Origin: an uncultured Pseudomonadales bacterium
Lineage (GTDB): Bacteria > Patescibacteriota > Microgenomatia > UBA1400 > PJMF01
Reading direction: 5' to 3'
Length of the DNA: 64,000 nt
Assembly (NCBI GenBank): GCA_964583625.1
Contig: CAZOVA010000001.1
Location: forward strand, 76,465 to 140,464
Shown piece after piece: positions 3,942 through 56,625 of the stretch. Position numbers and translations under genes: made by a program. Below the pieces are notes generated by a model. That model did no database searches. It saw only the letters and a list, made by a program, of their open reading frames with translations, and was not told the DNA's origin. Positions within the stretch are counted from its first letter, which is position 1. Every line of letters begins with the position of its first letter.

Positions 3942-3947
3942 CTATTT

Positions 3948-4607
3948 TTAGTTGAAGAAAATTTCGTTGGGGTCCATTTTTTTAGCCTCATTCAGCCAGA
4001 AGTGATAGTTTTGCCAATCATTGAGATAAAAATGAGCTAGAGCAAGATTAACTTTCTCCGCTTGACTAAAATTCTCTGCAAAAAAAGACTCTGTTTTAGT
4101 GTAAAGGTTTTGAGTACGCCAATAACTCTCTGGTCTTTTAACCAAGGTTCTTGTCTGAGCGTTTATTTCTGTTGGCAAAGCTAATATTTCCACTTTCCGC
4201 TCAACTTTTAAATCGACTGTTTCTTTTTCTATCGACCGCGTTCTAATATTGACCAGTAAAAGAGGTAATTGAGCTAAAATCAAAAAAACAAGCGCTAGAA
4301 AAACCCAAGCTTCATTTCCTTGTGAAAAAAAACTAATTTTTTTAGGCCAAAAACTTGGTTTTTTGGCTTTCTTATGAGTTTGTTGGTATTTTATTAAAAC
4401 CAAGTTTTTGGGGCTTTTTAAGGTTTTCTTGAGCCATTTCTTTTTTAACCAAACTGACCATAAGAAAAAATAAATTAAGTCGCCAAAAATTAATAACCCC
4501 AAATTTAGAAAAACGAAAGGTAAGAAAAATCTTCGCCAAGTCTTTTTTACCTTAGTCTCTTGCCGGAAAATTTGTTGGCCAATTTTCGGTTGCCAATATA
4601 GTTTCAT
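3948..4607 (-). CDS. hypothetical membrane protein (219 aa)
   Basis: ORF with 2-3 hydrophobic helices. The 5' end overlaps the valS 3' end by about 56 nt, so the true start is uncertain. Confidence 0.4.
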   Translation of the reverse strand: MKLYWQPKIGQQIFRQETKVKKTWRRFFLPFVFLNLGLLIFGDLIYFFLWSVWLKKKWLKKTLKSPKNLVLIKYQQTHKKAKKPSFWPKKISFFSQGNEAWVFLALVFLILAQLPLLLVNIRTRSIEKETVDLKVERKVEILALPTEINAQTRTLVKRPESYWRTQNLYTKTESFFAENFSQAEKVNLALAHFYLNDWQNYHFWLNEAKKMDPNEIFFN

Positions 4608-35032: not shown

Positions 35033-38000
35033 TTATCCAAAAAGAGTGCGAACGATTTGTCGTAAATTTCTCTTTTCTTTTTTCCTGTCTTGCCAAAAAA
35101 GATAGCCGAAGCCAGCAAGGGTGCCTAGCCACAAAATCATTCCTCCATAAGCCCAAATTTGAGGCCAATAATAAATTTTAACTAGCCATTGACCTCTGTC
35201 TACAGTCCAAGCATTGGCCCAACCGTTAAAAACCTGTGGTTTTTTAACTATTTTTTCCCCAGTTTCCTGATTGATAAACTTAGCCCGCCAAAGAGGATCA
35301 TAGCTTTGATGAAAAACTAATAAGTTGTTTTCGCTCTGACCAGCAAAAGTTAATTCATAACTAGCACTATTGTTTTTATGATATGCTCCTATCTGCGCCA
35401 CACTACTCACTTTTGCCAAATTTCTCTGTTGAGCGTAGATTTTACCTAGTCTTTGAATATTGACAGGAATAAAAATGAGCTCTGTCAAAGTATTTTCACT
35501 TTTCTGTCCAAAGGAATTAGTTTCAAAATTAAAAAATAATTCTTGGTAATTTTTTTTGTTCTGACTCATGAGATTATAAGTGATATCAAAATCACCTTCT
35601 GGCAAGAGTGTTTCTAAAAATCTTTGACCATTACTATCTTGAATGACGGCCATTTTCCAACTTCTTCCAGCCAAATTTTGTCCCTTCATTCTGAGCAAAT
35701 AATCGCTTCCATTATTAAAGTTTTCTGCCCTTATAGTTAGACAAGCATTACCCATTTTTTCAGCCCGCAACCAAAGTTTAGCTTCATTTTTTGCATTAAG
35801 ATTTTCGACTTCTCCTTCCTGAGAACAATTACCAATTTCCATTTTTTGCTTCAAATCAACTGCCTGTTCAAAACTTCGGTCAATTACTAATTCTAAATTT
35901 TTATTAGCTTCTTCTAAAACAAGAGAGGTGGTTTTTTTTAATGGTTCCAAGTAATTAGGGGTAAAAGTATAAGAAAAGGCGTTTTGGTAATTAATAATAT
36001 AAGAAATTTTCTCTGTTCTTTCTTGCGCATTAATTTTTCGATCATCGACAACAGTGATTTTCTGATTTTTATTTGGTAAAAATTGAAAAACGGCCACTTT
36101 ACTTTCTCCTTGAGCTAGAAAAACCACTTCTTGATTAAATTCCACCATAACTCTTTCAGCGCCCACCGAACTAATATCAATCTCCATATTTTGCAATTGA
36201 GGAATTTCAATTTTTTGTTTTCCATTATTAATATAGGTGCGAGGATAATCTAATAATAAATTCCCTCCCTCAAAACTTAGACGAACGGGAGTAATATAAG
36301 TCTCATTGTCTGCCAAAGCGGGCAGAGTCAGAGTCATGTTTTCCTGAGTAATTTTTTCACCTTTTAGAACTACTGTTTGGTCATGCCAACGGACCAGATC
36401 TTCGTTTTGTTCGGTGGTCAAAAAGGCAAAAGGATAAGTCAAGTCAGCTGTCTTTGAGAGTAAATAATCGCCACTATTTTCATAAAGAAAGTCTCTTTGT
36501 CCAGCAATAATATTTTTATTATTAACCAGTGAATATTTATCTGCTGCTTTGAAAAGAGCAGCTTCAGGATAAAACTGATACAGACTAAGAAAATCTTTTT
36601 GCCAGATCAGTTGACCACCACTAGCGCTTAAAAAGTCCTTTATTTCTTGATATTGCGCTCCTTTACCTTCATTAATAAAAGCACTTTCATCAAGTAAAAA
36701 TAAGCTTAAATTATATTGTTGCAAAACTTGAGAAAAAAGACTTTCGTTTTCTTGATTAAGAGCCAGATTCAACTGTCGATAAACTGTTTCATTAGTATTA
36801 ACCCAACGATCAAATTCTCTATCCAATAAAGCTTGAGGTAAACCGAACCACAGCCAGCCAGCTCCTTGATAACCACTCGTTTGCCAATCATGATAGGTCC
36901 AGCCGCTATAACTGAGCATTGGCAGTTTAACGACTACTTGTTCCTGATTGAGAAAGGTCAAAAAACTATAGAGTTCGTCATATTGTTTTGGAAAAGTGAC
37001 CTTCATTTTGTCACTCATTAAATGACCTGTCAAAGCCGGTAAATGAGCTAGCAATAAAAGCGTTATCGCCAATAGATTGACGGTAGTTGTTATTGTTCTT
37101 TTAGTTTCCCATTTTTTGGTTAATAATTCTTGAATAAAAACTAAGCCATTGGCAAAAAATACTACCAAAGCGAAAAGATAAATAATAGAAAACTTGGTAA
37201 AAGGAAAACGAATAGCTTCTTTTAGCAGAGGGAGTGAGCGAATTAATTGATATAGCCACTTGAGAGGAAAATTAAGATTGATTAAGAAAAAAAGACTTCC
37301 CAGAAAAACAGCCAGCAGAGCCAATGTTTGCCAAGTTTGTTTTTTCCAAGATTTATAAATACCAGCAAAAGCAATAATGACAAAAACATATTGTAAGAAA
37401 AATAAATGCGTTTTCTGATAATAAGAATTCCATTCGTCAAAAAGTGGGACAAATTCTCCTTTTTGCCAGTCTAAATCCTTCCAGTTAAAAAGGAAGTTTT
37501 TTCCTGTCAAAACTTGAGGTAACCAACCATAAGCTTGATTATTCCAAAAAGCCTCAGGAGAAAAATTTTGACTAATTTTTGCTTTACTAACATAATGAGA
37601 ATGAAAAATACTGTAATAAAAATTTGGCAATAACCAATAGCTATTGGCGGCTAAAACTAGAAAAATAAGAATTAAGATAGCTTTGATTTTTTTACGCCAG
37701 CCACCTCTTTTAGCCCAAAGCAGGAAAAACGTGTAAAGAAAAACAAAAGGCAGATACATATAGAAAAGGGTGGCGGTATGCGCGGCCGGCGCTGCCAAAG
37801 TTAAAACCACGAAAAACCAAAAATATTCCTGCAATCTGCCTCTTTCCACCGCTTTTTGCAAAGTGAGAAAAACCCAGGGTAAAGTCGCAAAGTGGACGGC
37901 GAACATTTCTAAAGGAACATAAAATTGTTGCAGAGTAATTAAGTTTAGTAGATAAAAAACTGCCGCCGCCGCTGCTGGCCAGGTAGTAAATTTTGTCTGG

Positions 38001-38362
38001 CGTAAAAAACAGAGAGTGAGAAAATAGTAGACGCCGATTCCACCTGTCACATAACAGATGAAAAAGAAAAGATAGCGATTAAGATTATTAGGAAATATTT
38101 GTAAAAGCCAAACTATTGGCAGTCTGACGATTTCCGCCAAGTGAGCTTGAGAAGCAGGAGCACCTAAACCCTGATGCGGTTGCCAAGCCCCCCAAAAAGT
38201 CCTTTGAAAGTATTGCGTTAAATTAAGTTCTGGCTGAAGAGTATCCCAACCGCTCAAAGTGGTTCCTGGTTTGATATTAATAATAGTGACCCAAAGAGCT
38301 ACTAAAACAATCGTTAGTAAAGGAAGATAAAGTTTAATTTTGGACCACCAAGAAGAGATCAT
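35033..38362 (-). CDS. large integral membrane protein (1109 aa): N-terminal roughly 450-aa polytopic domain plus large extracytoplasmic C-terminal domain; GT-C/Emb/YfhO-like architecture (tentative)
   Basis: At least 10 predicted TM helices followed by a long beta-rich soluble region. 4-nt overlap with the upstream GT-C gene. Confidence 0.5.
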   Translation of the reverse strand: MISSWWSKIKLYLPLLTIVLVALWVTIINIKPGTTLSGWDTLQPELNLTQYFQRTFWGAWQPHQGLGAPASQAHLAEIVRLPIVWLLQIFPNNLNRYLFFFICYVTGGIGVYYFLTLCFLRQTKFTTWPAAAAAVFYLLNLITLQQFYVPLEMFAVHFATLPWVFLTLQKAVERGRLQEYFWFFVVLTLAAPAAHTATLFYMYLPFVFLYTFFLLWAKRGGWRKKIKAILILIFLVLAANSYWLLPNFYYSIFHSHYVSKAKISQNFSPEAFWNNQAYGWLPQVLTGKNFLFNWKDLDWQKGEFVPLFDEWNSYYQKTHLFFLQYVFVIIAFAGIYKSWKKQTWQTLALLAVFLGSLFFLINLNFPLKWLYQLIRSLPLLKEAIRFPFTKFSIIYLFALVVFFANGLVFIQELLTKKWETKRTITTTVNLLAITLLLLAHLPALTGHLMSDKMKVTFPKQYDELYSFLTFLNQEQVVVKLPMLSYSGWTYHDWQTSGYQGAGWLWFGLPQALLDREFDRWVNTNETVYRQLNLALNQENESLFSQVLQQYNLSLFLLDESAFINEGKGAQYQEIKDFLSASGGQLIWQKDFLSLYQFYPEAALFKAADKYSLVNNKNIIAGQRDFLYENSGDYLLSKTADLTYPFAFLTTEQNEDLVRWHDQTVVLKGEKITQENMTLTLPALADNETYITPVRLSFEGGNLLLDYPRTYINNGKQKIEIPQLQNMEIDISSVGAERVMVEFNQEVVFLAQGESKVAVFQFLPNKNQKITVVDDRKINAQERTEKISYIINYQNAFSYTFTPNYLEPLKKTTSLVLEEANKNLELVIDRSFEQAVDLKQKMEIGNCSQEGEVENLNAKNEAKLWLRAEKMGNACLTIRAENFNNGSDYLLRMKGQNLAGRSWKMAVIQDSNGQRFLETLLPEGDFDITYNLMSQNKKNYQELFFNFETNSFGQKSENTLTELIFIPVNIQRLGKIYAQQRNLAKVSSVAQIGAYHKNNSASYELTFAGQSENNLLVFHQSYDPLWRAKFINQETGEKIVKKPQVFNGWANAWTVDRGQWLVKIYYWPQIWAYGGMILWLGTLAGFGYLFWQDRKKEKRNLRQIVRTLFG

Positions 38363-40024: not shown

Positions 40025-41692
40025 TTAATTGTTTGGTAGACCAATGACTTCGGTGGGATTAAAAACCACCTTATTACTCTCCCGATCGAGGGTAAAAGTG
40101 CCAGCCACTTTGGTTTTAATTGAGCCGTCCTGATCATACTCAGCAAAGACAGCCGTCAAACCTTGATAGGGCTGCATATCCAAATGATGTTGACCCTCAG
40201 TCAGTTGGCGGAAAATATCACCCACCTCGGAGATTTGAGAAAGCTTTCCCTCTTGTCCAGTTATCTCAATCAATTGTCCAGCGGGGATGTTTCCCTTGCC
40301 ATTGGTAATTGTTTCTAAGTGGGCAGGGATTTTGGCAAAACTAAGAGTGTTCCACCATTTGGCGTCCTGTCTCTCTTCTGGCGTTATTAAATTACCATTA
40401 ATACTAATTGAGCCATCCCCGGAAATCTTCAAAACTTGTTCCTTGATAGAGGCGGGGATGGTGACGTCCACTCGATCAATCAACCGCAAATCATTTTCGC
40501 CTGCAACATTGGCATTGGAATAACGAAACTCTTGCTCGTCAACACTTGGATCCCAGAAAGAAGTAACGAATTTTTCAATAACTTGTCCTTGCGGGCTAGA
40601 AAATTCAATTTTACTTTGTAAATCCATCTCTGAACGACGAGGATCAATATAGTTGTTTTCGGCAGTTCCTCCAATTGGTAAAGCATCAATAAAGGTCTGC
40701 CGGGCAAGTGATTCTTCGCCGGCCATTACTTCTTGTGCCATTGAAGAGGCTTCTTGCTCTGTTGTGGGGAGCTTGTCGACACCAATAACTTCGGTGGGAT
40801 TGAAAACAATTTTTCCTTGTTCATTGGCCATAAATGTCCCTTTTACTTGCTGGGCAATCTCACCATTCTCTGCAAAAACAGTAAAAGCAGCATTAATTCC
40901 TGTATAAGGTCTTTTTTCTCCGTCTTCCAGCAAATGTTCTTGTCCTTCTTGCAGTTGAAAAGAGATATCTCTTCTTTCGGCCTCTAGTGAAGGTCTCTCA
41001 CCATTAATAAATAGTTGACCAGAAGGGCGATTACCATGACCATCGGTCATCACTTCTACTCCAGCAGGGAACACGCCGATATTAAGATTGTTCCAATAGC
41101 CACTATCTTGTTGTTGATCGGAACGGACCAAACCCTCTTGTGTGCCCAAAGAACCATCACCAGATATTTTTAAGGTTTGTTCCTGACTAGAAGCAGGAAT
41201 AAAATTAATAATTTTATCTACCAAATACTGACCCTCAGATTCTCTATTGGAAGAGAGGAAGGGGACACTTTCTGCCTGAGCATCAAATAAGGAAAGAATA
41301 AACTGTTTGACTTCTGGACCTTGTTCACCTACCACCTCAATATTATTGATAAAGTCGGCTTTGGCTTTCTCAGGATCAAGAAATTGTTTCTCCTGTGGTC
41401 CATCAGCCACTAATTCATTGAGAAAAGCTTGTCTTTGCTCTGTTTCTCCGGCGAGACCTTCTTCCAGCCAAGCTAAGTTTTCTTGCGAAGGCATAGTGCC
41501 AGCCGTTTCCAATTTTGTTTTTGTATCTGTTTTGCTATTAGGGTCGCTAGCTGCCTCAGCTTTTTGTCCACCGCCACCACTAAAAGCTAGACCAATAGCT
41601 GTTACAATGGCGGCCGCTCCCCTGGCAAGTTTCTTTTTCTCTTTTTTCTTAAACTCTTCTTCCGTCCCCGGATATCCTTGTTCTAAGGCCAT
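40025..41692 (-). CDS. secreted/anchored hypothetical protein built from two homologous roughly 235-aa repeats
   Basis: N-terminal basic + hydrophobic + AEA signal. Internal duplication visible (…KISGDGSLGTQEGLV…KIVFNPTEVIGVDKLP… versus …KISGDGSISINGNLI…KVVFNPTEVIGLPNN). Confidence 0.6.
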   Translation of the reverse strand: MALEQGYPGTEEEFKKKEKKKLARGAAAIVTAIGLAFSGGGGQKAEAASDPNSKTDTKTKLETAGTMPSQENLAWLEEGLAGETEQRQAFLNELVADGPQEKQFLDPEKAKADFINNIEVVGEQGPEVKQFILSLFDAQAESVPFLSSNRESEGQYLVDKIINFIPASSQEQTLKISGDGSLGTQEGLVRSDQQQDSGYWNNLNIGVFPAGVEVMTDGHGNRPSGQLFINGERPSLEAERRDISFQLQEGQEHLLEDGEKRPYTGINAAFTVFAENGEIAQQVKGTFMANEQGKIVFNPTEVIGVDKLPTTEQEASSMAQEVMAGEESLARQTFIDALPIGGTAENNYIDPRRSEMDLQSKIEFSSPQGQVIEKFVTSFWDPSVDEQEFRYSNANVAGENDLRLIDRVDVTIPASIKEQVLKISGDGSISINGNLITPEERQDAKWWNTLSFAKIPAHLETITNGKGNIPAGQLIEITGQEGKLSQISEVGDIFRQLTEGQHHLDMQPYQGLTAVFAEYDQDGSIKTKVAGTFTLDRESNKVVFNPTEVIGLPNN

Positions 41693-41870: not shown

Positions 41871-42590
41871 TTACCTGATCGGGTTGAGGGCGACGGTGTC
41901 GCCCATCTTAACGATCACAAAGTCATAGGTGCCGTCGTTGGCCAGGATGCGCACATCCAGGCCGTCGTACGGCTTGTTCTTCAGGTGCTCCACGGGAAGG
42001 AGAACCTGGATCCCAAGATCCCGGTATTCAGCCCAAGCATAGGGCTTAACACCGGCATCGAAGAGCTGGATGCTAGGCACCCAGCCCTTGCTGAAAACGA
42101 GCATCAGCTCGCCGTCAGCCGGGATGGTCATGAAGAACAAGGTATTCCTGCTGGGGTCTCCACCTTGGAGAGTCTCACCCAGCTTCTGTCCGTTCAAGAA
42201 CACCTCAACGAACGAACCGCTGATCTTGAGGACCTGTCCCGCTTTCACGGGGGTCCTCGCCACCTTGAGACCGTTTTCCTCAACGACGGTCAAGCCGTCG
42301 TTGAGCCACACAAAGTGTGGATTTTGATTCTCAATCTGGAAATATTGCCCCCAAGTAATGCGTTCAGCATCACTCAGGTTGACAATCCAGCCAGGCCCAT
42401 CATAGGTCTGAGTAGCTTGCTGCTGGAGATCCAAGGTCGCCAACAACTGCGCCACTTGCTCAGGGGTGCCGTAGAATACGGCCCCGCTGGGTAAGGTGAC
42501 AGGCACGAGTCCCGCGCCTTCCGCGAGGACGGTATTGGCGCCCAGCGCCAGGAGGATCAGGACAACAACGAGGATCATCAGTTTTTTCAT
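41871..42590 (-). CDS. secreted hypothetical protein encoded on a high-GC (about 57%) insert. Signal peptide MKKLMILVVVLILLALGANTVLA. An alternative in-frame upstream start at 42680 also carries an SD
   Basis: Codon usage (CTG, GCC, GGC, GTC) and GC content are sharply different from flanking genes. AAGGAGGG lies 7 nt before the ATG at 42590, and AAGGAGGT 7 nt before the ATG at 42680. Confidence 0.7.
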   Translation of the reverse strand: MKKLMILVVVLILLALGANTVLAEGAGLVPVTLPSGAVFYGTPEQVAQLLATLDLQQQATQTYDGPGWIVNLSDAERITWGQYFQIENQNPHFVWLNDGLTVVEENGLKVARTPVKAGQVLKISGSFVEVFLNGQKLGETLQGGDPSRNTLFFMTIPADGELMLVFSKGWVPSIQLFDAGVKPYAWAEYRDLGIQVLLPVEHLKNKPYDGLDVRILANDGTYDFVIVKMGDTVALNPIR

Positions 42591-42730
42591 GGGGTTTCCC
42601 TCCTTCTTAGCGCCTTGAGCGCTCTTTGTGGGGTTGATCCCCACCGTGGGTTCCTTGGTGTGCACGAACAGCTTCTTCATGATTTTTACCTCCTTCGGTG
42701 GGGATCATGGACCCCGTTTAGTCAGACCTT

Positions 42731-42795
42731 GCTATCGCGAATAGCTAAGATCTGCCACTCAAAACTCAAGTCTTAAGTTCTCAGTGGCAGATCCT
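42731..42795 (-). promoter_or_regulatory. pair of palindromes upstream of the GC-rich gene: GCTATCGCGAATAGC-like and an 11-bp inverted repeat GATCTGCCACT-N23-AGTGGCAGATC
   Basis: Read directly; coordinates approximate. Located about 50-110 nt upstream of the longer start codon. Confidence 0.3.
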
Positions 42796-43063
42796 ATACT
42801 AGGTTCAAGCAAGAAATAACTACACCAAAGTGGTTTCACTATTTTGACTTTGTTATAAGTATCTTCTGTTAAAAAGCGTGTTTAAGAAATATTGCTATTT
42901 CTTTTCACTCCCGCTTCAACTCTAAGAGTTTTTCGCCTTACCAAGCGAAATGCTTGAGAGGCAAGACCTTTCTTATGTTAAAGCGAACACATTATAGCAT
43001 AAGATATCTATTTTGTCAATAGTCAATTATTATAAGTCTAATTATTGAAGAAATAAGAAAATA

Positions 43064-43549
43064 TTAGCCCACTTTTACTTTGGCCACCTGGAGCACTTGT
43101 CCATGGAGCAGGTATCCTGGAGTAATCACTTCGGTCACAACTTCATTTTCACCTGTTTTTTCTACCGCCTCCATTTTTTCTGGATCAAACTTTCCGCCCT
43201 CAAGCTCCATTTTTTGCAGACCTTGATCCTTGAGAGTTTGCCAAAATTGTTCCACTACCAAATTGAGTCCTTGGTCTTGCAAGTTTTCCGCTGCTAAACT
43301 CAGATGAGTTAAAGGCTGTAAAAGGCTAGAGAAGACCAAAACTTGTGCAGCCTTGATCAGCTGAGTTTGATCTTCTTTTTGTCGGCGAACAAGATTTTGA
43401 TAATCGGCCAAAGCTCGAGCTGTTTGCTCTTTACATGCTGCTATTTGCTTTTTGAGTTGAGAGTTCTCTTCAGCGAGATTATTTTTTTTATCAAATTTTC
43501 CTTGGAAATCATTTTTTTTAACAGAAACTCCTTTTTTATCTTGTAACAT
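43064..43549 (-). CDS. grpE: nucleotide exchange factor GrpE (short)
   Basis: Coiled-coil N-terminus (…ALADYQNLVRRQKED…) and C-terminal beta-domain (…FDPEKMEAVEK…ITPGYLLHGQVLQVAKVKV). Confidence 0.7.
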   Translation of the reverse strand: MLQDKKGVSVKKNDFQGKFDKKNNLAEENSQLKKQIAACKEQTARALADYQNLVRRQKEDQTQLIKAAQVLVFSSLLQPLTHLSLAAENLQDQGLNLVVEQFWQTLKDQGLQKMELEGGKFDPEKMEAVEKTGENEVVTEVITPGYLLHGQVLQVAKVKVG

Positions 43550-43560
43550 AAGCTATTTTT

Positions 43561-44280
43561 CTAAATCATACTTTCCATCAATTGCTTGATATAGCGCATC
43601 ATCGGGATAACATAAGGATAGTCAAAACGACTAGAACCTAAAACGCCAAACTGATATTCGTCTTCACCAAGCATCACTTTGGAAAAAATCAAGCTGATAG
43701 GCTCTAGGTCGCGATTGCCTAATTCTTGACCATAGACGACTTGGACAGAATTTTCACTATTACCGAATTTGAAGATATCCTGCAAAACAGAGACCTCTTC
43801 AATTAAAGTCAAAACTTGACGCATCAGCGTAATATCATAAAATTCTGGCATTTGTAGTAAATTGGCATAGCCAGCGTGATAAACTTTGCACCCATTAATG
43901 ACGACGAAGCCCAAGGCGTGAGTTTGTTTGGCTAAACCTCTAGCGATTGCCCAAGCTAATTCTTCATGTTCATTGCGATTGAGCCAAATTTTTTCTTTTA
44001 CACCCACCTCATCGGCTACTGTCAAATCTTTTTCCTTCATCAGTTCATTGACATAGAGCTTGAGAGCTGAGCTGGTAGGCAAGCGACCAGAGCTAGAATG
44101 GTCTTTGGACAAATAACCTTGTTTTTCTAAAAAAACCATTTCATTACGAATAGTTGCTGGAGAAACTCCGAGATTGTATTTTTTATCCAAAGTTTCTGAA
44201 CCCACCGGCTTGGCCTCACGAATAAACTCCTCAACGATTAATTTGAGAATTTGTACTTGACGGGCTGTTAATCCGATCAT
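43561..44280 (-). CDS. hrcA: heat-inducible transcription repressor HrcA
   Basis: LTARQVQILKLIVEEFIREAKPVGSETL…SPATIRNEMVFLEKQGYLSKDHSSSGRLPT matches the HrcA N-terminal wHTH region. Confidence 0.75.
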   Translation of the reverse strand: MIGLTARQVQILKLIVEEFIREAKPVGSETLDKKYNLGVSPATIRNEMVFLEKQGYLSKDHSSSGRLPTSSALKLYVNELMKEKDLTVADEVGVKEKIWLNRNEHEELAWAIARGLAKQTHALGFVVINGCKVYHAGYANLLQMPEFYDITLMRQVLTLIEEVSVLQDIFKFGNSENSVQVVYGQELGNRDLEPISLIFSKVMLGEDEYQFGVLGSSRFDYPYVIPMMRYIKQLMESMI

Positions 44281-44384
44281 AATTATCTTTCTCTCACAAT
44301 TTCAAGTAGCAATTATATAGCAAGACTGCCAGTTTGTCAATTTTAAGCCTGATTTTGATTTTTTCATTTAGTTTTTGCTCATCA

Positions 44385-44414
44385 CTTGACAAAAGAGTTT
44401 TATTAATGATAGAA
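44385..44414 (+). promoter_or_regulatory. sigma70-like promoter TTGACA-18-TAGAAT driving the pilin-like gene array
   Basis: cacTTGACAaaagagttttattaatgaTAGAATg about 60 nt upstream of the ATG at 44474. Confidence 0.5.
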
Positions 44415-44473
44415 TGCAAGACATAACTTGCAAAAGTTACATTAGTTATTAATTGAAAGAAAGGTTTCTTTAT

Positions 44474-44893
44474 ATGAAGAAAGTCTTGAATAAGATCAGC
44501 ACAGCTGCTTCTTTGGGAGTGATTGCTTTGAGCAATGCTGGTATGGCTTTTGCTCAAGGGGGAAGAGCTGGAGTTAACATGGGCACTAATACCATTTTTC
44601 AAACTGGCGGTACAGCTGTAACTTCTGACCCCACGGTTTTGATTAAAAATGTAGTTAATCTGATTTTAATTTTGGCAGGCGCCTTAGTGTTTGCCTATTT
44701 AATCTGGGGAGCGATTAAATGGATTACTTCTGGTGGTGATAAATCCAAAGTGGAAGAAGCTAGAAATAAAATTACTTCAGCTATCGTCGGTCTTTTGATT
44801 TTAGCCGCTGTTTGGGCCATCTTCAACTTGGTCCTCACCATTGCTTTCGGAGCTGGAGACATGACGATCAAGTCATTAAACACTGCCACCTAA
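44474..44893 (+). CDS. pilin-like small membrane protein 1 (signal peptide plus two-TM hairpin); TrbC/VirB2-like T4SS pilin architecture
   Basis: MKKVLNKISTAASLGVIALSNAGMAFA-QG signal. Hairpin VLIKNVVNLILILAGALVFAYLIWGAI-KWITSGGDKSKVEEARNK-ITSAIVGLLILAAVWAIFNLVLTIAFG. No G/FTLIE type IV prepilin motif. Confidence 0.55.
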   Translation: MKKVLNKISTAASLGVIALSNAGMAFAQGGRAGVNMGTNTIFQTGGTAVTSDPTVLIKNVVNLILILAGALVFAYLIWGAIKWITSGGDKSKVEEARNKITSAIVGLLILAAVWAIFNLVLTIAFGAGDMTIKSLNTAT

Positions 44894-44926
44894 TTTGCTA
44901 ATTTTTAAAATATAAAAATTCTCAAA

Positions 44927-44951
44927 CCCCTCTTAAAAAAGAGGGGTTTTT
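44927..44951 (+). terminator. rho-independent terminator CCCCTCTT-aaaa-AAGAGGGG + TTTTTG
   Basis: 8-bp stem plus U-tract directly after pilin-like gene 1. A second promoter (TTGACA-17-TACACT, about 44954-44982) follows. Confidence 0.6.
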
Positions 44952-45004
44952 GTTTGACAAAGAGCCTCTTGTTTGATACACTCATCCTCATGAACTTTAA
45001 ATTT

Positions 45005-45448
45005 ATGAAAAAATTTCACTTAAAATCACCAATGGTCTTATTTTTGTCGGTCATTTTGTTTTTTGGACAAATACAGGCGGCGAGTCCAAATCCGAGTCCA
45101 AATCCGAGTCCAAATCCTAATACTGCTTATGCAATTGACTCTTTTAAACCTCAAAATATGAATGTAGCAACTGATGCCTCTAGTTTGATTGTTAATATTG
45201 TCAATACAGTAATTATGGTGGCTGTTATTTTAGCTTTTGTTTATTTACTCTACGGAGGTTTGTCGATGATCACCTCTGAAGGTGATGCGGCCAAAAAAGC
45301 CACCGCCAGACAAAGAATGACTTGGGCAGCGATTGGATTATTGATTTTTGCTGGTTCTTGGGCAATATTCAATTTAATCACCACCGTCGCTTTTGGCGGC
45401 ACAGACGTAGAATTGCCAGTATTTACTGACGAACAAGCTAATACTTAG
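45005..45448 (+). CDS. pilin-like small membrane protein 2 (paralog), with (SPNP)3 linker
   Basis: Start at MKKFHLKSPMVLFLSVILFFGQIQA-AS. Same TM1-loop(SEGDAAK)-TM2 core. The track's upstream extension was rejected because the promoter lies inside it. Confidence 0.55.
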   Translation: MKKFHLKSPMVLFLSVILFFGQIQAASPNPSPNPSPNPNTAYAIDSFKPQNMNVATDASSLIVNIVNTVIMVAVILAFVYLLYGGLSMITSEGDAAKKATARQRMTWAAIGLLIFAGSWAIFNLITTVAFGGTDVELPVFTDEQANT

Positions 45449-45469
45449 TGTAATAAAGAAAGATACTAT

Positions 45470-46430
45470 TAAAATTATGAAAAAAGGTTTCTTAAAAATT
45501 GGTAAAAGTCTTTTACTAAGTTTTTCTCTTTTAGCTTTGGCTTTTGTTCCAGTAGCGGCTCAAACCGACGAGAAAATCAAGGTGAGCACCTTTACTCAAT
45601 CAGCTGGTGATAAAGTGCCTACTAGTTCTACTGTTTTAATCACCAATATCGTCAATACTGTCTTAATTGTGGCTGCCGCTTTAGTTTTTGCCTATTTAAT
45701 CTATGGAGCTATTAGCTGGATTACTTCAGGTGGTGATAAATCCAAAGTAGAAACAGCCAGAAATAGAATTACCTCTGCCGCTTTAGGAATTCTCATTCTT
45801 GCTTCTGTTTGGGCCATCTACAATCTAGTTTTAACAATTGCTTTTGGCGGTCAAGATTTGCAAATTAAGAATTTGAATGAAGGAGTGGCAAACAGAATAA
45901 ATCAAGGAACCAGAAAAGACGAAACGGATAAAAGAGAAAAAGAAAGAGCTATATAAACTAGCCGTAACGAGGTAAAACTTTGAAAGTAAAAAAGGTAAAG
46001 AAAGGTATTAAAATAAAATTATGAAAAAAGGTTTCTTAAAAATTGGTAAAAGTCTTTTACTAAGTTTTTCTCTTTTAGCTTTGGCTTTTGTTCCAGTAGC
46101 GGCTCAAACCGACGAGAAAATCAAGGTGAGCACCTTTACTCAATCAGCTGGTGATAAAGTGCCTACTAGTTCTACTGTTTTAATCACCAATATCGTCAAT
46201 ACTGTCTTAATTGTGGCTGCCGCTTTAGTTTTTGCCTATTTAATCTATGGAGCTATTAGCTGGATTACTTCAGGTGGTGATAAATCCAAAGTAGAAACAG
46301 CCAGAAATAGAATTACCTCTGCCGCTTTAGGAATTCTCATTCTTGCTTCTGTTTGGGCCATCTACAATCTAGTTTTAACAATTGCTTTTGGCGGTCAAGA
46401 TTTGCAAATTAAGAATTTGAATGAAGGAGT
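45470..46430 (+). repeat. 417-bp perfect tandem duplication (45470-45886 = 46014-46430, period 544 bp) spanning 7 nt of 5' UTR plus the first 137 codons of pilin-like genes 3 and 4
   Basis: Sequences identical by eye over the whole interval. They diverge exactly at the C-terminal tail. Confidence 0.8.
45477..45956 (+). CDS. pilin-like small membrane protein 3 (paralog), charged C-terminal tail
   Basis: MKKGFLKIGKSLLLSFSLLALAFVPVAA-QT signal. Conserved hairpin core. Tail …NRINQGTRKDETDKREKERAI. Confidence 0.55.
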   Translation: MKKGFLKIGKSLLLSFSLLALAFVPVAAQTDEKIKVSTFTQSAGDKVPTSSTVLITNIVNTVLIVAAALVFAYLIYGAISWITSGGDKSKVETARNRITSAALGILILASVWAIYNLVLTIAFGGQDLQIKNLNEGVANRINQGTRKDETDKREKERAI

Positions 46431-46533
46431 AGCGGAAAATGCTGCTCCCCTTGGCGGCGGCGTTGGAGGTGGCGCCCTTGGCGGCGGCGTTGGAGGTGGC
46501 GCAGGTTCTGTTGTCATGACTGCTGCTGAATAG
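46021..46533 (+). CDS. pilin-like small membrane protein 4 (paralog), Gly-rich C-terminal tail (GGGVGGGALGGGVGGGAGS) encoded by a 27-bp x2 tandem repeat
   Basis: Identical to gene 3 through residue about 137, then …ENAAPLGGGVGGGALGGGVGGGAGSVVMTAAE. Confidence 0.55.
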   Translation: MKKGFLKIGKSLLLSFSLLALAFVPVAAQTDEKIKVSTFTQSAGDKVPTSSTVLITNIVNTVLIVAAALVFAYLIYGAISWITSGGDKSKVETARNRITSAALGILILASVWAIYNLVLTIAFGGQDLQIKNLNEGVAENAAPLGGGVGGGALGGGVGGGAGSVVMTAAE

Positions 46534-46570
46534 TAATATTTAAAAAGAAAGTAAGGCTTAAAAAATAACT

Positions 46571-46597
46571 CCCTCACTTGTAAAAGTGAGGGTTTTT
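46571..46597 (+). terminator. rho-independent terminator CCCTCACTT-gtaa-AAGTGAGGG + TTTTT (end of pilin array; bidirectional with respect to recO)
   Basis: 9-bp perfect stem plus U-tract. Confidence 0.6.
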
Positions 46598-46610
46598 AGT
46601 TTGCTAATAA

Positions 46611-47147
46611 TCAAGCTCGTAAATATTCAAAACTGTGCAAAGTTCGCCCAGTCAATTCACTCACTAGAGAACTAACAGAGCACTGCATTTCTTTTTGTTG
46701 ATCCCAATAACCTAGTTCTGCCAATAAGGCTTGGAAAGACTCTTTTATTTTTTGATTGTTCATGTTTTGTAAGAGTAGTTCCCTCAAACTCAGCACTTGC
46801 TGAAAGAGATGAGGAGAAAGCTCTTCTTCAGTCAATAATAAATCAATAATCTCCAAATAAAGCAGAAAACGACGCAAACGACTTAAAGAGAAGCGAGTTT
46901 CGCCGATAGTGCCCACGAGGCAGGCTTGAGTTAAAATAGGCCAAGATTTGGTTTTAACAAGTTGCACTTGAACCAAATTGCCTGGTTCAAGATAGGGTCT
47001 TTTTTTGGAGTTTAACTTGCAAGTGCCTTTGGCAACAGTAATAATTTTTCCCAGCTCGCAAGTGAGAAGAGTGACCAATAGGTCACTCTCTCTACTTTTT
47101 TTCACTTTGATCACAATCGCTAAAAGATTGCGACTTTTATATTTCAC
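46611..47147 (-). CDS. recO: DNA repair protein RecO, truncated form lacking the C-terminal zinc-finger region
   Basis: N-terminal OB-fold pattern (LLAIVIKVKKSRESDLLVTLLTCELGKIITVAKGTCKLNSKKRPYLEPGNLVQVQL) and helical domain (RFLLYLEIIDLL…). Confidence 0.5.
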   Translation of the reverse strand: MKYKSRNLLAIVIKVKKSRESDLLVTLLTCELGKIITVAKGTCKLNSKKRPYLEPGNLVQVQLVKTKSWPILTQACLVGTIGETRFSLSRLRRFLLYLEIIDLLLTEEELSPHLFQQVLSLRELLLQNMNNQKIKESFQALLAELGYWDQQKEMQCSVSSLVSELTGRTLHSFEYLRA

Positions 47148-47152
47148 CGTTT

Positions 47153-48184
47153 TTATTCTTCGTCTTCTTGACGGGCTTTCTTCAATTTCTCATCTAATTT
47201 GTTCAGCTTTTCTTCTTCTAGATCGAGCATTTTGGCATATTTTTTACGAGTAGTAACGCTGACGATGATAATTAAAATAATTACTAATAAGATGGCTAAG
47301 ATAGTGCGAACGGGCACAATCCAAAACCGAGCTTCTACTGGTACTAGCTCTTTACCGCTGCTTGCCCCATAAATACCACTCAAGTGGGCAGTGTAGCGAC
47401 CGAAACCCCAATGAGCATTCCATTCGCCCTTCATCTCTCTTTCACTATCAGGAAAGATATTTTTTTGTTCTGGAGCTAAGGTAGCCATTTCTTTGCCAAA
47501 CATATTTTTAATGACAATTTTTGTTTCTGGACGAATATGTAAGCTAGAATTATTTTCTATTTTGTAACTATAAGCAACTGGGCCAAATTCGCTAAATTTT
47601 TTGAAAGCAAAATCTTTTATTTCAGCTTCTTCGGCGATTTCTCCATCAACTACGACATAGAGAAGTGTTCCTACTTGAGCAGTAATTTTAGCCCCAGTAG
47701 TTTCTGTTTCTCCTGTTCCCATTGCTGGTTTGTGTAAAACCATAGCATAACGTCCCCCTGGAAGAGCATCTTCTGGCACATTAATAGTGACCATTAAAGC
47801 AGCTGAGCCATAAGGCTTCAAAGCTACATTATTGGGAGTGACTGTCAGCCATTGAGCCAAGCTCCATTTACTACTCACTTCATCCTCAACAGCAATCGGC
47901 GTTTCTCCGTCTGGAGCGATAATAAAATCACGAGCAAAAGTTTCCACGGTGGCGGGATAAGCTGAAGGATTGCGAACTTCAATAGTAGTTTGAGTTTTTT
48001 GTCCTGGCTTAACCACTAAGCTGTAATCATCACCTAAGCGGGGAGGAACGGCAGTCAGAGCAATTTCTCCAGGGTTGGCCACAGGAGGAGTGTCTGTTTG
48101 GGCCCAAATTTGACTGGAGAAAAGACCTAAAAATCCCCCAACTATTAGTAGGGTGAGAGAGGAGATTTTATTAATTGATTTCAT
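47153..48184 (-). CDS. cell-surface protein with signal peptide, about 280-aa ectodomain, C-terminal TM anchor and charged tail; resembles the DUF916/CscA-type anchored surface protein architecture
   Basis: MKSINKISSLTLLIVGGFLGLFSSQIWA-QT signal. C-terminal ILAILLVIILIIIV TM plus KK/EE-rich tail. Confidence 0.55.
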   Translation of the reverse strand: MKSINKISSLTLLIVGGFLGLFSSQIWAQTDTPPVANPGEIALTAVPPRLGDDYSLVVKPGQKTQTTIEVRNPSAYPATVETFARDFIIAPDGETPIAVEDEVSSKWSLAQWLTVTPNNVALKPYGSAALMVTINVPEDALPGGRYAMVLHKPAMGTGETETTGAKITAQVGTLLYVVVDGEIAEEAEIKDFAFKKFSEFGPVAYSYKIENNSSLHIRPETKIVIKNMFGKEMATLAPEQKNIFPDSEREMKGEWNAHWGFGRYTAHLSGIYGASSGKELVPVEARFWIVPVRTILAILLVIILIIIVSVTTRKKYAKMLDLEEEKLNKLDEKLKKARQEDEE

Positions 48185-48203
48185 AAAGTTTTATTTCCCT
48201 TTC

Positions 48204-49631
48204 TTAAAAAGATGCTGTTACTGTATAAGTGACACTGGTATTATATTTTCCAGGAATATTTGTATTGGAAGAATTAATTTTATAACAAAGATTAACAATG
48301 TCGCCATTGGTAGAACGAAGGTTATTAATAATTTGCAAAGTAGTTTCTCCGTCAGCTTTGTCAGCAAAACTGCTCCAACCGCTAGCTCCGCCAGCAGCAT
48401 TAACACCATTGTAAGTAAAATTGGGAGTAACATTAGGAATATTACCGTTCAAGTATTTATCTCCATCTACCACTTCCATAGAGAAACCAAAGTTTCCTGT
48501 AGTCGCTGGGGCGGTCCAGGCTGTCGCAGTTCCTGGAGTACCAAAATTAGGAATACAAATATCATTACCTAAACCATTTCCTGGGCAACCATCACCATCC
48601 AAACTCATCTGGTCACTGCCAATAGCGGTCACTACATAGCCATTAGCAGCATTAGTAGTGACAGTTAGCTTTTGTGCTGCCTGGGAAAACTGAAGATTGC
48701 TAATCGAACCAAAAGGAACGAGTGATCCCGTAGTGCTAGCAGAAGTGCTAGCTCCACAAGCAGCAACACTATTACCTACACCCTCAATTTTGAAACTTAA
48801 CTGCGGAGCTACTCTGACAACCATTTTGACAGCATTAGCAAAACCGACAGCTGTTGTTTCAGTAAAAACATTTACTCCGGCCCTTTCTTGTTTTAAAGAG
48901 ATCAACATGGAATTAAAGTCACCGACAGTGTCTCCGATTTTAGCCGTCGGATTAATCAAGCCTGTAACGACGAACTCCAATTGCTGATTGGCGGAGGCGG
49001 TCGCCTCAGTGTATTGACAACTAAAAAGATGATTGGGATTGGTTGTCCCGCCTGTTCCCACTGGGGCAGAGGTGGCCGTATAACCAGCTGGGCAAGTGAT
49101 GCTGGCATTGGTATTGAAATCAAAACCATCAATATCTGGTAAACCATCATTAGCAATTGCGGCACTAGCAGTAGCTGCTGGAAAATTAATAGTCAAAATA
49201 TCATTTTGTTGGAGATTGGTAACAGTCGCTTTAATTTTGATAGGACCGCTAGCTCGATGATAAACAGGCGTACCAGCAGCAATATTAGCTGTGGCTAGCA
49301 AACCGTCAAGGGGAATTTCATTATTCTTCAAAAGAGCACTACTAGTAGCTACCTTATAAATAATATTCCCAATTAAGACACTGTCACCATTAATTAATTG
49401 TTGACTAGAAACTGAATAGATCCCCTGAGCTTCATTAGCCACTGTTTCTATCAAAGCTAAGGAAGTATAGGCAACATTACCGCTAGCTAGTTTTCCTCTA
49501 AATGAAAGTCTAGAATTACTTGGAAAAATTTCTACTTGGTTTTGAGCAGCCGCTCTTTCGGGAATAAATAAGATAAGAGAGATAAGAATAAATACGGTCA
49601 ATTTAATCGAAAAATTCTTAAATAATTTCAT
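48204..49631 (-). CDS. secreted Thr/Asn/Gly/Ala-rich beta-rich surface protein (475 aa); possible partner of the anchored protein (WxL/Csc-like arrangement, tentative)
   Basis: Signal peptide MKLFKNFSIKLTVFILISLILFIPERAAA-QN. Low-complexity T/G/N-rich body. No LPXTG motif. Confidence 0.55.
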   Translation of the reverse strand: MKLFKNFSIKLTVFILISLILFIPERAAAQNQVEIFPSNSRLSFRGKLASGNVAYTSLALIETVANEAQGIYSVSSQQLINGDSVLIGNIIYKVATSSALLKNNEIPLDGLLATANIAAGTPVYHRASGPIKIKATVTNLQQNDILTINFPAATASAAIANDGLPDIDGFDFNTNASITCPAGYTATSAPVGTGGTTNPNHLFSCQYTEATASANQQLEFVVTGLINPTAKIGDTVGDFNSMLISLKQERAGVNVFTETTAVGFANAVKMVVRVAPQLSFKIEGVGNSVAACGASTSASTTGSLVPFGSISNLQFSQAAQKLTVTTNAANGYVVTAIGSDQMSLDGDGCPGNGLGNDICIPNFGTPGTATAWTAPATTGNFGFSMEVVDGDKYLNGNIPNVTPNFTYNGVNAAGGASGWSSFADKADGETTLQIINNLRSTNGDIVNLCYKINSSNTNIPGKYNTSVTYTVTASF

Positions 49632-54855: not shown

Positions 54856-56625
54856 TTGTTTATGTTTACTAAAAATTTACCTATAAAGGTTCGGTCTTTG
54901 TTCTATGACGGTATTTTTACTCAGTTAACGAAGTTTACTTTTATTTTCCTTATTCTTTGTTTCTTTTTAAGGAGTGATGCTAGGGCGCAAACCACAGTTG
55001 AGCAACAATGGGTGAAAAGTTTTGGCGGAGGCAGTGAAGACCTCTTTCTTTCTTTAGTTACTACTAATGATGGTGGTTATTTAGTCGCCGGGCAAAGCAA
55101 ATCTACTAATGCCGGTTTTACCAATCAAGGAGGATTTGATGCCATCATTGTTAAATACGATAGTGCTGATAATCAAGAGTGGGTAAAGAACTTTGGCGGC
55201 AGCGGTAATGATTATTTTACTTACATTGTTAAGGCCAATGATGGTGGCTATTTAGCTGCCGGAATAAGTAGCTCTACTAATGCCGGTTTTACCAATCAAG
55301 GAGGATTTGATGCCATCATTGTTAAATATGATAGTAATTACGTCCAACAATGGGTGAAAAATTTTGGGGGTGGCAATATTGATGCTTTTAAATTCCTTAA
55401 TGCCACCAATGATGGTGGTTATTTGGCTGTTGGTTATAGTTATTCCACCAATGCTAGTTTTGTTAATAAAGGAAGTTCTGATGCCATCATTATTAAATAC
55501 GACAGCGCTGGTAATCAAGAGTGGGCAAAGAACTTTGGTGGAGGCAGTGATGATTATTTTTTTGCCTCTATTTCTAACTCTGAGAATGGTTATTTGGCTG
55601 TTGGTTATAGTTATTCCACCAATGCCGGCTTCACTAATAAAGGGGGGATTGATGCTGTTTTAGTTAAATACGACAGTGCTGGCAATCAGCAATGGGTGAA
55701 AAATTTTGGGGGAAGTGGTAGTGATGATTTTTACTCTCTGATTAATACCGGTGATGGTGGCTATTTAGCTAGTGGTGATAGCAGTTCCACCAATGCCGGC
55801 TTCACTAATAAAGGGGGGATTGATGCTGTTTTAGTTAAATACGACAGTGCTGGCAATCAGCAATGGGTGAAAAATTTTGGGGGTGGAGGCAGTGATCACT
55901 TTTTTTCTCCTATTAATACCAGCGATGGCGGGTATTTGGTAACTGGCAATAGCGGTTCCACCAATGCTGGCTTCACTAATAAAGGGGGAATTGATACTAT
56001 TTTAGTTAAATACGACAGTGCTGGCAATCAGCAATGGGTGAAAAATTTTGGTGGGGGCAGTGATGACGGCTCTGCTTGCCTCATTGCCAATAGCAGCGGT
56101 GATTATTTGCTGGTTGGTGATAGCCGTTCCACCAATGCCGGATTCACTAATAAAGGAATGAATGACGGCGTTTTAATCAAGTACAAAACCTATCTGCTCT
56201 CGGCCTATCCTCAAGCTCAATTAGATTACCAAGCACCTGACCCTCAACTTCCCTTTAATATCAAAGAACTAAGTCCCAAAGACCAAGAAACCAGTATTAG
56301 TGGTCAATTAATAGCCAATAAAGAAACTAAAACTTATAATTTAAGTTTAGAACTGAAAGATGGTAATACTTTAATTAAAACCTATACTTTAAATAACTTT
56401 CAAGTACCTGCTAATAATACTAAAACCTTTAACTTTACCATTCCCACCATTGATTTTAATCCTTCAGTCTCCAACTTTACCTTTCAAGGTCCACATGTTC
56501 TTAAAATTACCGATACTAGTAATAATCTAACCACTACCCTTAACTGGAATCTTACCTTTTCTTTTCCTGCCTATAATATCTTGCATCAAATCAATGGTGG
56601 GAATTATATTAGGGTGTATAGATAG
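54856..56625 (+). CDS. secreted beta-propeller repeat protein (about 13 tandem roughly 46-aa SBBP-like repeats) plus C-terminal beta-sandwich-like domain
   Basis: Repeat unit WVKNFGGGSDD…DGGYL..G.S.STNAGFTNKGGIDA.LVKYDSAGNQQ recurs about 13 times. Several copies are near-identical at the DNA level (for example about 55617-55710 versus 55782-55875). Confidence 0.65.
   Translation: MFMFTKNLPIKVRSLFYDGIFTQLTKFTFIFLILCFFLRSDARAQTTVEQQWVKSFGGGSEDLFLSLVTTNDGGYLVAGQSKSTNAGFTNQGGFDAIIVKYDSADNQEWVKNFGGSGNDYFTYIVKANDGGYLAAGISSSTNAGFTNQGGFDAIIVKYDSNYVQQWVKNFGGGNIDAFKFLNATNDGGYLAVGYSYSTNASFVNKGSSDAIIIKYDSAGNQEWAKNFGGGSDDYFFASISNSENGYLAVGYSYSTNAGFTNKGGIDAVLVKYDSAGNQQWVKNFGGSGSDDFYSLINTGDGGYLASGDSSSTNAGFTNKGGIDAVLVKYDSAGNQQWVKNFGGGGSDHFFSPINTSDGGYLVTGNSGSTNAGFTNKGGIDTILVKYDSAGNQQWVKNFGGGSDDGSACLIANSSGDYLLVGDSRSTNAGFTNKGMNDGVLIKYKTYLLSAYPQAQLDYQAPDPQLPFNIKELSPKDQETSISGQLIANKETKTYNLSLELKDGNTLIKTYTLNNFQVPANNTKTFNFTIPTIDFNPSVSNFTFQGPHVLKITDTSNNLTTTLNWNLTFSFPAYNILHQINGGNYIRVYR

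Follow-up and report, generated by a model that had tools for sequence, protein, structure and literature searches.

A perfect 417-nt direct repeat in a Patescibacteria VirB2-like pilin array gives two pilin genes with one core and different C-terminal tails

The window analyzed here is a 64,000-nucleotide (nt) stretch of contig CAZOVA010000001.1 (positions 76,465 to 140,464; GCA_964583625.1) from a Patescibacteria (candidate phyla radiation, CPR) genome. Between hrcA and recO it carries a chromosomal array of four genes, pil1-pil2-pil3A-pil3B, for type IV secretion system (T4SS) pilins, and the last two genes encode proteins that have an identical core and different C-terminal tails. The identity lies in a perfect 417-nt repeat that is present across samples, the array has an operon-like layout, and core-identical pairs with different termini recur in other species. 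We think it probable, with moderate confidence, that gene conversion keeps a shared pilin core while the exposed tails remain alternative, so that the pair would provide two surface variants of one structure. Judged from the sequence features described below, the two products may co-assemble, display their tails on the cell surface and have a role in host interaction.

Extent of the repeat

The sequence at 45470-45886 (+) returns exactly at 46014-46430 (+), which makes a direct repeat of 417 nt with an offset of 544. Each copy takes in 7 nt of leader and, within one of two open reading frames (ORFs) on the + strand, 136 codons and 2 bases, i.e., the signal peptide, the N-terminal segment and the two-helix core. 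The copies are set apart by 127 unrelated nt, which consist of the tail of pil3A (tail A) and an intergenic stretch with a unique spacer that holds the purine-rich leader of pil3B (45957-46013, +). The match cannot be extended by a single base at either edge, and in the 60 nt beyond, ungapped identity drops to 28% at the left edge and 23% at the right. When one gap is allowed, a weaker similarity of the copies reaches ~17 nt farther upstream (435 aligned nt, 98.85%). There is no other long perfect repeat within the window, and chance is therefore excluded as the source of this one.

Codon 137 (GTG/GTA, Val) and codon 138 (GCA/GCG, Ala) differ synonymously between pil3A and pil3B, and the two proteins are thus the same through residue 138 and split from residue 139. 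The preliminary description of this DNA reported a perfect 417-bp tandem duplication, running from 7 nt of the 5' untranslated region through 137 codons, with divergence starting exactly at the tail and two genes that differ only in their C-terminal tails. Our analysis agrees with the perfect identity, the 7 nt and the confinement of the protein difference to the tails. However, the repeat is direct with a 127-nt spacer rather than tandem, the DNA identity ends after 136 codons and 2 bases, and the proteins split after two further synonymous codons.

Protein family and architecture

All four genes of the array pass the gathering cutoff of PF18895 ('type IV secretion system pilin'), which is 26.6 bits. 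pil1 (44474-44893, +; 47.7 bits) encodes 139 amino acids (aa) from an ATG and has the same start in the gene call of the independent scaffold L001, while pil2 (45005-45448, +; 32.4 bits) encodes 147 aa from an MKK start that belongs to a conserved start motif. pil3A (45477-45956, +; 33.0 bits) encodes a 159-aa pilin with a charged tail, and the exact protein occurs in other assemblies. pil3B (46021-46533, +; 32.0 bits), the gene for which an AlphaFold2 (AF2) model is available, encodes a 170-aa pilin with a Gly-rich tail. The TrbC/VirB2 profile PF04956 scores pil2 only, at 15.4 bits against a cutoff of 27.9 (E = 0.021), and gives no match to pil3A or pil3B. The earlier label of pilin-like genes therefore holds, with the correction that these are VirB2/TrbC-like T4SS pilins (PF18895) and not type IV pilus pilins. 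In public gene calls, pil2 starts at 45032 (138 aa) and has no Pfam family recorded. The ATG at 45005 gives a signal peptide beginning with MKK, lies inside the start-site motif shared with the pil3 genes and yields a protein that passes PF18895, and the shorter call is probably wrong.

When homologues are aligned, the loop that joins the two hydrophobic helices, WITSGGDKSKVE...AR, is nearly invariant, and the residues W81, I82, T83, S84, G85, G86, D87, K90, V91, E92, A94 and R95 are invariant or nearly so. The AF2 model of pil3B has a signal-peptide helix at residues 3-22 and a hairpin at 51-83 / 88-123 with a predicted local distance difference test score (pLDDT) of ~85; the score is <50 in the N-terminal segment and ~48-54 in the C-terminal tail. 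The array products are predicted to begin with a Sec-type signal peptide and a short N-terminal segment, and to continue with two long hydrophobic helices, joined by the short basic loop WITSGGDKSKVETARNR, and a C-terminus. By the positive-inside rule, the basic loop would be cytoplasmic and both termini would be outside. A profile search against PDB sequences returned only unrelated transmembrane (TM) hairpins at E >= 0.46, and the best Foldseek match in the PDB had E = 0.86, with no VirB2 or TraA recovered; a bare helical hairpin is too simple for either search.

The two tails and the tails of the family

The tail of pil3A, tail A, comprises residues 139-159 (21 aa, NRINQGTRKDETDKREKERAI; 45891-45953, +), and the tail of pil3B, tail B, comprises residues 139-170 (32 aa, ENAAPLGGGVGGGALGGGVGGGAGSVVMTAAE; 46435-46530, +), in line with the earlier account of one charged and one Gly-rich tail. 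The DNA of tail A is 80% purine, which is more than in any 70-nt window of 22 bona fide genes (maximum 75.7%). It also stands alone as highly charged (at least 40% K/R/E/D) in a survey of 41 long tails (at least 30 aa). K/E-rich, purine-rich 3' ends are found in the L3, L22 and WxL-like genes here as well, and we did not rely on composition to argue that tail A was formerly non-coding. Tail B has 64% GC, compared with 37.6% for the window, and contains a perfect in-frame tandem duplication of 27 nt (9 aa x 2; 46448-46501, +). Its Gly codons are GGC in 8 of 13 cases, against 21% in other genes (P = 0.002), and the tail looks recently remodelled. Inspection by eye found no LPXTG or C-terminal TM-type sorting signal in tail B. 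Neither tail has a source elsewhere in the window, where the best match is a 16-nt one at chance level.

A broad profile collected 493 pilin ORFs of the family. In these, the part that follows the second helix is mostly 11-18 aa long, with a median of 15 aa, and it reaches at least 30 aa in 41 of the 493. The long extensions in the family are Cys-rich modules or linkers rich in Ser/Thr/Pro/Gly. This favors extensions that are, across the family, retained and exposed rather than discarded as propeptides, although it is unproven for the two short tails here.

Two further kinds of architecture were seen in related loci. On contig L010 (8734-10317), ~260 aa with a confirmed VWA domain (PF13519, 37.7 bits) come after a pilin-like two-helix core (37% to pil2 by tblastn, E = 1e-10). 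The pilin part of this protein is below the PF18895 threshold, and the protein may be a pilin-adhesin fusion. Additionally, two complete pilin cores stand in series within single ORFs on L042 (4345-5226), L047 (4275-5234) and L030 (4440-5234), and in L042 both PF18895 stretches are confirmed.

Transcription layout and chromosomal setting

Promoter and terminator sites were assigned by consensus scans only. Upstream of pil1 and divergent from hrcA there is a promoter-like TTGACA-18-TAGAAT with a TG extension (44386-44415, +; 11/12 consensus matches), and pil1 is followed by an intrinsic-terminator-like hairpin with an 11-bp stem and a T run (44924-44949, +). A second promoter-like site, TTGACA-17-TACACT with TG (44954-44982, +), precedes pil2-pil3A-pil3B. 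The scan gave no promoter-like or terminator-like site between pil2, pil3A and pil3B. One weak terminator-like hairpin lies within the tail of pil3B (46487-46502), and a strong, bidirectional terminator-like hairpin (46571-46592) separates pil3B from the convergent recO. The sites suggest two predicted transcription units, pil1 and pil2-pil3A-pil3B, in which pil3A and pil3B appear to be co-transcribed with pil2 from one promoter.

The setting is that of a core chromosome. grpE and hrcA lie upstream of the array, and downstream are recO, a WxL-interacting-protein-like gene, a gene for a 475-aa secreted-looking protein, tuf, fusA, rpsG and rpsL. On the - strand, 46611-49631 contains recO, the WxL-interacting-protein-like gene, whose 343-aa product is membrane-anchored, and the 475-aa protein, which has no Pfam match. 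These three neighbors are kept across L006, L007, L008 and L093 at 42-66% identity, and a functional link between them and the pilin array is possible. The number of pilin genes at the same syntenic site is 1 in L008, 2 in L007 and 3 in both L006 and L093. The preliminary description had overlooked that the pair belongs to a four-gene array, a kind of array that is already published (PMC12102498).

The locus in independent assemblies

The same DNA was located in public assemblies by exact-protein look-ups. Scaffold L001, from another sample, is 100% identical to 41952-47786 of the window and has both copies of the repeat. Contig L004 spans pil2, copy 1, tail A, the spacer and the start of copy 2, and L003 spans tail A, the spacer, copy 2 and recO. 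The Logan contigs, which are built with k=31 and without repeat resolution, give a different type of evidence. L086, L087 (with 12 similar places), L089 and L090 all terminate at 45499, which is exactly k-1 = 30 nt inside the repeat, and at least 16 runs break there. Runs with such branched contigs include SRR8925811, SRR8925788 and ERR4682457. Such contigs break 30 nt into the repeat because the repeat has two different left neighbors, i.e., a branch in the de Bruijn graph. Tail A always precedes a core in the contigs of independent assemblies, and one linear path alone passes through every unique segment a single time, namely pil2 - core - tail A - core - tail B.

Copy number may vary at this site. 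In L002 (SRR21295121), position 45886 is joined directly to 46431, which leaves one core with the Gly-rich tail. This is exactly the state predicted for a one-unit deletion by recombination between the repeats, with the tail-A unit gone, and L091 (SRR12132972) also crosses the left repeat boundary unbranched. However, both contigs have little length (3.1 and 1.0 kb) and break off where coverage drops out, and the single-copy state of L002 may be a low-coverage collapse, as tip-clipping in a k=31 graph could give the same picture. L005 was considered as evidence for three copies and was rejected. Its 643 nt equal 544 + 99 nt with the first and last 99 nt identical, and it represents a loop in a k=99 graph (core - tail A - core). 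The view of the preliminary description that the repeat is a substrate for copy-number change is plausible, as a direct repeat of 417 nt can undergo deletion or amplification and L002 has the form of a one-unit deletion. Still, copy-number polymorphism is suggested by one single-copy contig, and we treat it as a lead and not as a finding.

Compared with L001-L005 and L086-L092, the segment 38474-47786 is 99.96-100% identical; across several projects, the MUNK22 ENA assemblies among them, at least 20 sequencing runs show the locus at this level of identity. A protein search found no relative between 60% and 99% identity, and for EF-Tu no partner at 90% identity or more was found. What emerges looks like a population that is widespread and nearly clonal, within a lineage that is otherwise isolated.

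Core-identical pairs in other species

The preliminary description had proposed a comparison with related genomes. A self-comparison of 80 related loci gave four unrelated species with long, near-identical blocks in neighboring pilin genes, and a look-up of one close homologue added a fifth, so that there are core-identical pairs with different termini in five other species (L082, L060, L028, L025 and L093), or six pairs when pil3A/pil3B is included. This count is a lower bound because short-read assemblies tend to break or collapse such repeats.

The pairs differ in where the identity ends. In L082, it is perfect from -17 to codon 128, where the proteins continue with ISGGGPGSGTAGRGT and IGG, respectively. 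In L028, the core is identical and both flanks have diverged yet can be aligned, and in L025 an identical core is joined to a Cys-rich head in one N-terminus and a plain head in the other. L060 has perfect identity from -20 to codon 71 (synonymous divergence, dS, of 0), followed by codons 72-117 with a dS of 0.28 and a nonsynonymous divergence (dN) of 0.01, and then a saturated tail. This gradient points to a conversion tract on top of two older duplicates, each of which is under selection.

The L093 pair (3463-4528; GCA_053526315.1, JAIVMM010000008.1) consists of adjacent pilins of 140 and 175 aa at the syntenic site of the window. Its 105 core codons contain 8 synonymous and 0 nonsynonymous differences (dS ~0.12; P ~1e-5 under neutrality), and the identity continues 61 nt past the stop. 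Here, the N-terminal heads are plain versus Cys-rich, the latter being a head of 40 aa after the signal peptide. P0010, P0011 and P0013, from other samples, have the same pattern. The ratio dN/dS was measured only where differences suffice, in L093 and L060, and at ~0.03 it indicates purifying selection on both copies while the exposed terminus is wholly different.

Across the 80 loci of other species, there are 1-10 pilin genes per locus, mostly 6-9 in tandem. Relatives with informative titles are nearly all metagenome-assembled genomes (MAGs) of Patescibacteria, and the best match to a species representative is 61% identical. Among L006-L085, 'uncultured Pseudomonadales' or 'Gammaproteobacteria' stands in the titles of dozens of MAG records whose pilin arrays are typical of Patescibacteria, which presumably reflects placeholder or erroneous taxonomy in third party annotation submissions.

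Comparison with known systems

Arrays of this kind are known in Patescibacteria, where 441 VirB2 arrays of 2-11 genes were described in 383 assemblies (Quinonero-Coronel et al., 2025; PMC12102498). A pilin gene lies near virB4 in 1135 of 1948 assemblies, and pilin variety was proposed to aid adaptation to different hosts (PMC12102498). The T4SS cluster and predicted pilins are essential in Southlakia epibionticum (Wang et al., 2023; PMC10633639), and the one Patescibacterium that can be manipulated genetically requires the T4SS and its pilin array for growth as an epibiont (PMC11665869; PMC10633639). Reviews call the role of the T4SS 'completely unknown' and a possible pilus in a monoderm 'remarkable' (PMC11665869; PMC12857230). 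The window array shares with the published ones PF18895, a signal peptide with a two-helix hairpin, the tandem arrangement and the small CPR chromosome, and as in many published cases no T4SS machinery gene lies next to it, judged by the ORFs of at least 120 aa scanned in the 64 kb. However, the published arrays have sequence-divergent members, with a within-array amino-acid identity of 25% on average and 54% at most (PMC12102498), whereas pil3A and pil3B share all of their first 138 residues (100% identity) and are distinguished by the C-terminal tail only. The array is therefore of a known kind, but complete identity of two members across the whole core lies beyond the published range.

The major pilin of the T4SS is also encoded in multiple tandem copies, as virB2, in Bartonella, Anaplasma and Rickettsia, where its variation is believed to change surface properties or host interaction (PMC12102498; PMC3556328; PMC2653234). 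These are diderm intracellular pathogens of animals for which immune evasion is the proposed driver, unlike the organism here. Additionally, their virB2 variation is spread along the protein, in contrast to the identical core with alternative termini of pil3A/pil3B. Like canonical VirB2/TrbC proteins (RP4 TrbC, Ti VirB2, F TraA), the pilins of the window are small, start with a signal peptide, have a helix-loop-helix hairpin with a basic loop and extend past the second helix at the C-terminus. They differ in giving no significant sequence match (PF04956) and in belonging to a monoderm; Foldseek gave no significant match either, but a bare hairpin is too simple for such a search.

In the pilE/pilS system of Neisseria, conversion among pilin paralogs combines a constant assembly region with variable exposed C-terminal parts. 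The pilS loci are promoterless silent cassettes without the constant 5' region, and that pilin family is unrelated to PF18895. In the window, by contrast, it is the constant region that occurs twice, and each copy is a complete gene within the same apparent transcription unit, with an identical start codon, leader and signal peptide. The R64 shufflon resembles the present case in that a constant N-terminal PilV body receives alternative C-terminal ends, which set partner specificity. There, Rci-mediated inversion between sfx repeats leaves one end expressed at once, whereas here no inverted repeats flank the ends and both ends belong to separate genes that can be expressed simultaneously. Within 44000-48000, only weak inverted repeats of 21-25 nt were found, none of them flanking the alternative tails. 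The R64 thin pilus is mentioned in the survey of Patescibacteria arrays (PMC12102498).

Other features of the window

Elsewhere the window contains secY, rpoD and ribosomal protein genes. An ORF of 589 aa (54856-56625, +) includes seven head-to-tail copies of a 171-nt unit (57 aa) at 55003-56199. The units are 61-75% identical to the first and fill most of the ORF, which has only weak ricin-B-lectin-like and DUF5669 matches and is probably a repetitive surface protein. Five large ORFs of 555-1179 aa (205-3204, 8364-11903, 12009-14087, 35033-38362 and 40025-41692) have no Pfam match at E <= 0.001.

Origin of the pair and alternative explanations

A simple tandem duplication of 544 nt was rejected as the origin of the pair. 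The 127 nt after each copy are unrelated, and so is the upstream sequence apart from ~17 nt of leader. A local alignment of tail A and the spacer with tail B and its downstream sequence scores 22, which is not significant compared with shuffled sequences (15.3 +/- 2.3, maximum 28). The left edge of the repeat lies inside the start-site motif shared with pil2, and the right edge comes no more than 3 residues from where P0002, the closest homologue, also diverges, after the shared NLNEG motif. The two codons past the block, which differ only synonymously, hint faintly that older homology exists beyond a conversion tract. The preliminary description had left the choice between very recent duplication and ongoing gene conversion. 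The perfect identity agrees with that statement, and conversion is shown statistically for the analogous L060 pair.

In the process that we favor, conversion would have copied the sequence from the shared start-site motif through the end of the conserved core between neighboring paralogs, while the older, unrelated 3' ends would have stayed in place. The regions for contact between subunits and with the membrane would then be identical in pil3A and pil3B, and their products could enter the same T4SS-associated assembly interchangeably, which would display two different tails on the surface. As a side effect, the 417-nt repeat might be lost or amplified by recombination or replication slippage. 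Deletion between direct repeats always removes the tail-A gene, and its recombinational loss is plausible from the arrangement of the sequence.

Several points weigh against this process. For pil3A/pil3B themselves, the evidence for homology-dependent conversion between neighboring paralogs, with partial-gene duplication less likely, is suggestive only, and with zero differences between the copies selection on this pair is unmeasurable. Tail A may be read-through into a former leader, as it is short and 80% purine, although composition is not decisive. No VirB2 or TraA structure was recovered, and the link to pilus-forming VirB2 therefore rests on Pfam and the literature. A Pfam scan of the ORFs of at least 120 aa in the 64 kb found no VirB4, VirB6 or VirD4. 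Finally, reviews leave open whether Patescibacteria build a pilus from these proteins (PMC12857230; PMC11665869).

Rather unlikely, but to be taken seriously, is that the pair is a neutral transient duplicate, in which pil3A is a recent partial copy with a functionless read-through tail that is being lost by recombination. Zero substitutions mean that selection has had no time to act, the purine content and charge of tail A stand out from the 22 genes (maximum 75.7%) and the 41 long tails, and the single-core contig L002 lacks exactly the tail-A unit. The range of 1 to 4 genes at this syntenic site among related species also resembles a birth-and-death pattern. On the other hand, the 127 nt of tail A and spacer have no source in the window and are unlike the sequence after copy 2, the duplicated state is seen in at least 16 runs, and K/E-rich C-termini are normal in other genes of this genome. 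Moreover, the analogues in L093 and L060 have persisted with both copies under strong purifying selection.

The pair might also serve gene dosage only, if the tails were propeptides removed in maturation and both genes gave the same mature pilin. RP4 TrbC and Agrobacterium VirB2 do undergo C-terminal cleavage and head-to-tail cyclization. In most members of the family the chain stops 11-18 residues (median 15) past the second helix, which is about where the identity block ends, so that the tails fall outside the usual mature length. We nevertheless find this explanation improbable, since the scanned ORFs include no match to a TraF-like or other peptidase, and the folded-looking Cys-rich C-terminal modules of other members and the VWA extension of one pilin-like protein would be hard to understand as propeptides that are thrown away. 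The variable module of L093 follows the signal peptide at the N-terminus and is not an obvious propeptide.

A programmed variation switch, in which RecA recombination between the cores alters copy number or exchanges tails often enough to be useful and so yields phase or antigenic variation, is very unlikely. Perfect direct repeats of 417 nt only 127 nt apart are recombinogenic, and the one-unit deletion in L002 and the unbranched left boundary in L091 speak for it. However, tip-clipping could explain these two short contigs with coverage drop-out ends, and L005 is a graph loop rather than a three-copy state. The tail-swapping proposed in the preliminary description does not fit either, as direct repeats permit only loss or amplification of the tail-A unit. 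Moreover, neither silent cassettes nor inverted repeats are present, and the ORFs scanned gave no recombinase or integrase match. Least credible of all is an assembly artefact, i.e., a mis-joined or falsely duplicated repeat, which could be suspected of a metagenome-assembled contig with a repeat longer than a typical short read and which the preliminary description had itself named as a threat, because both copies and both junction orders recur independently in L001, L003 and L004, tail A leads into a core in every case, the k=31 contigs of at least 16 runs break exactly 30 nt into the repeat, and only one linear path uses each unique segment once, all at the level of assemblies.

Implications for Patescibacteria pilins

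If conversion does keep a common core with alternative tails, its effect would be a diversification of the host-contact surface and not immune evasion. The known partners of these organisms are other bacteria (PMC11665869), and the antigenic variation suggested earlier is for this reason not the expected outcome. Nor would the tails mark an exposed pilin tip, since the usual VirB2 topology would put a tail on every subunit along the filament. An identical, selected core next to a variable terminus suggests which part builds the structure and which part faces the partner cell. As core-identical pairs are broken or collapsed in short-read MAGs, they are probably under-counted.

More tentatively, and as a possibility that we would not yet call likely, the VirB2-like pilins of Patescibacteria may be modular, with a core kept identical in neighboring genes by conversion and strong purifying selection and interchangeable exposed N- or C-terminal modules, so that one T4SS-associated filament or channel could bear several host-contact modules at the same time. 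Such modules would include charged, Gly-rich, Cys-rich and possibly VWA types. If this is true, pil3A and pil3B would be the youngest case of a mechanism, general among these obligate epibionts, that diversifies or broadens their host recognition.

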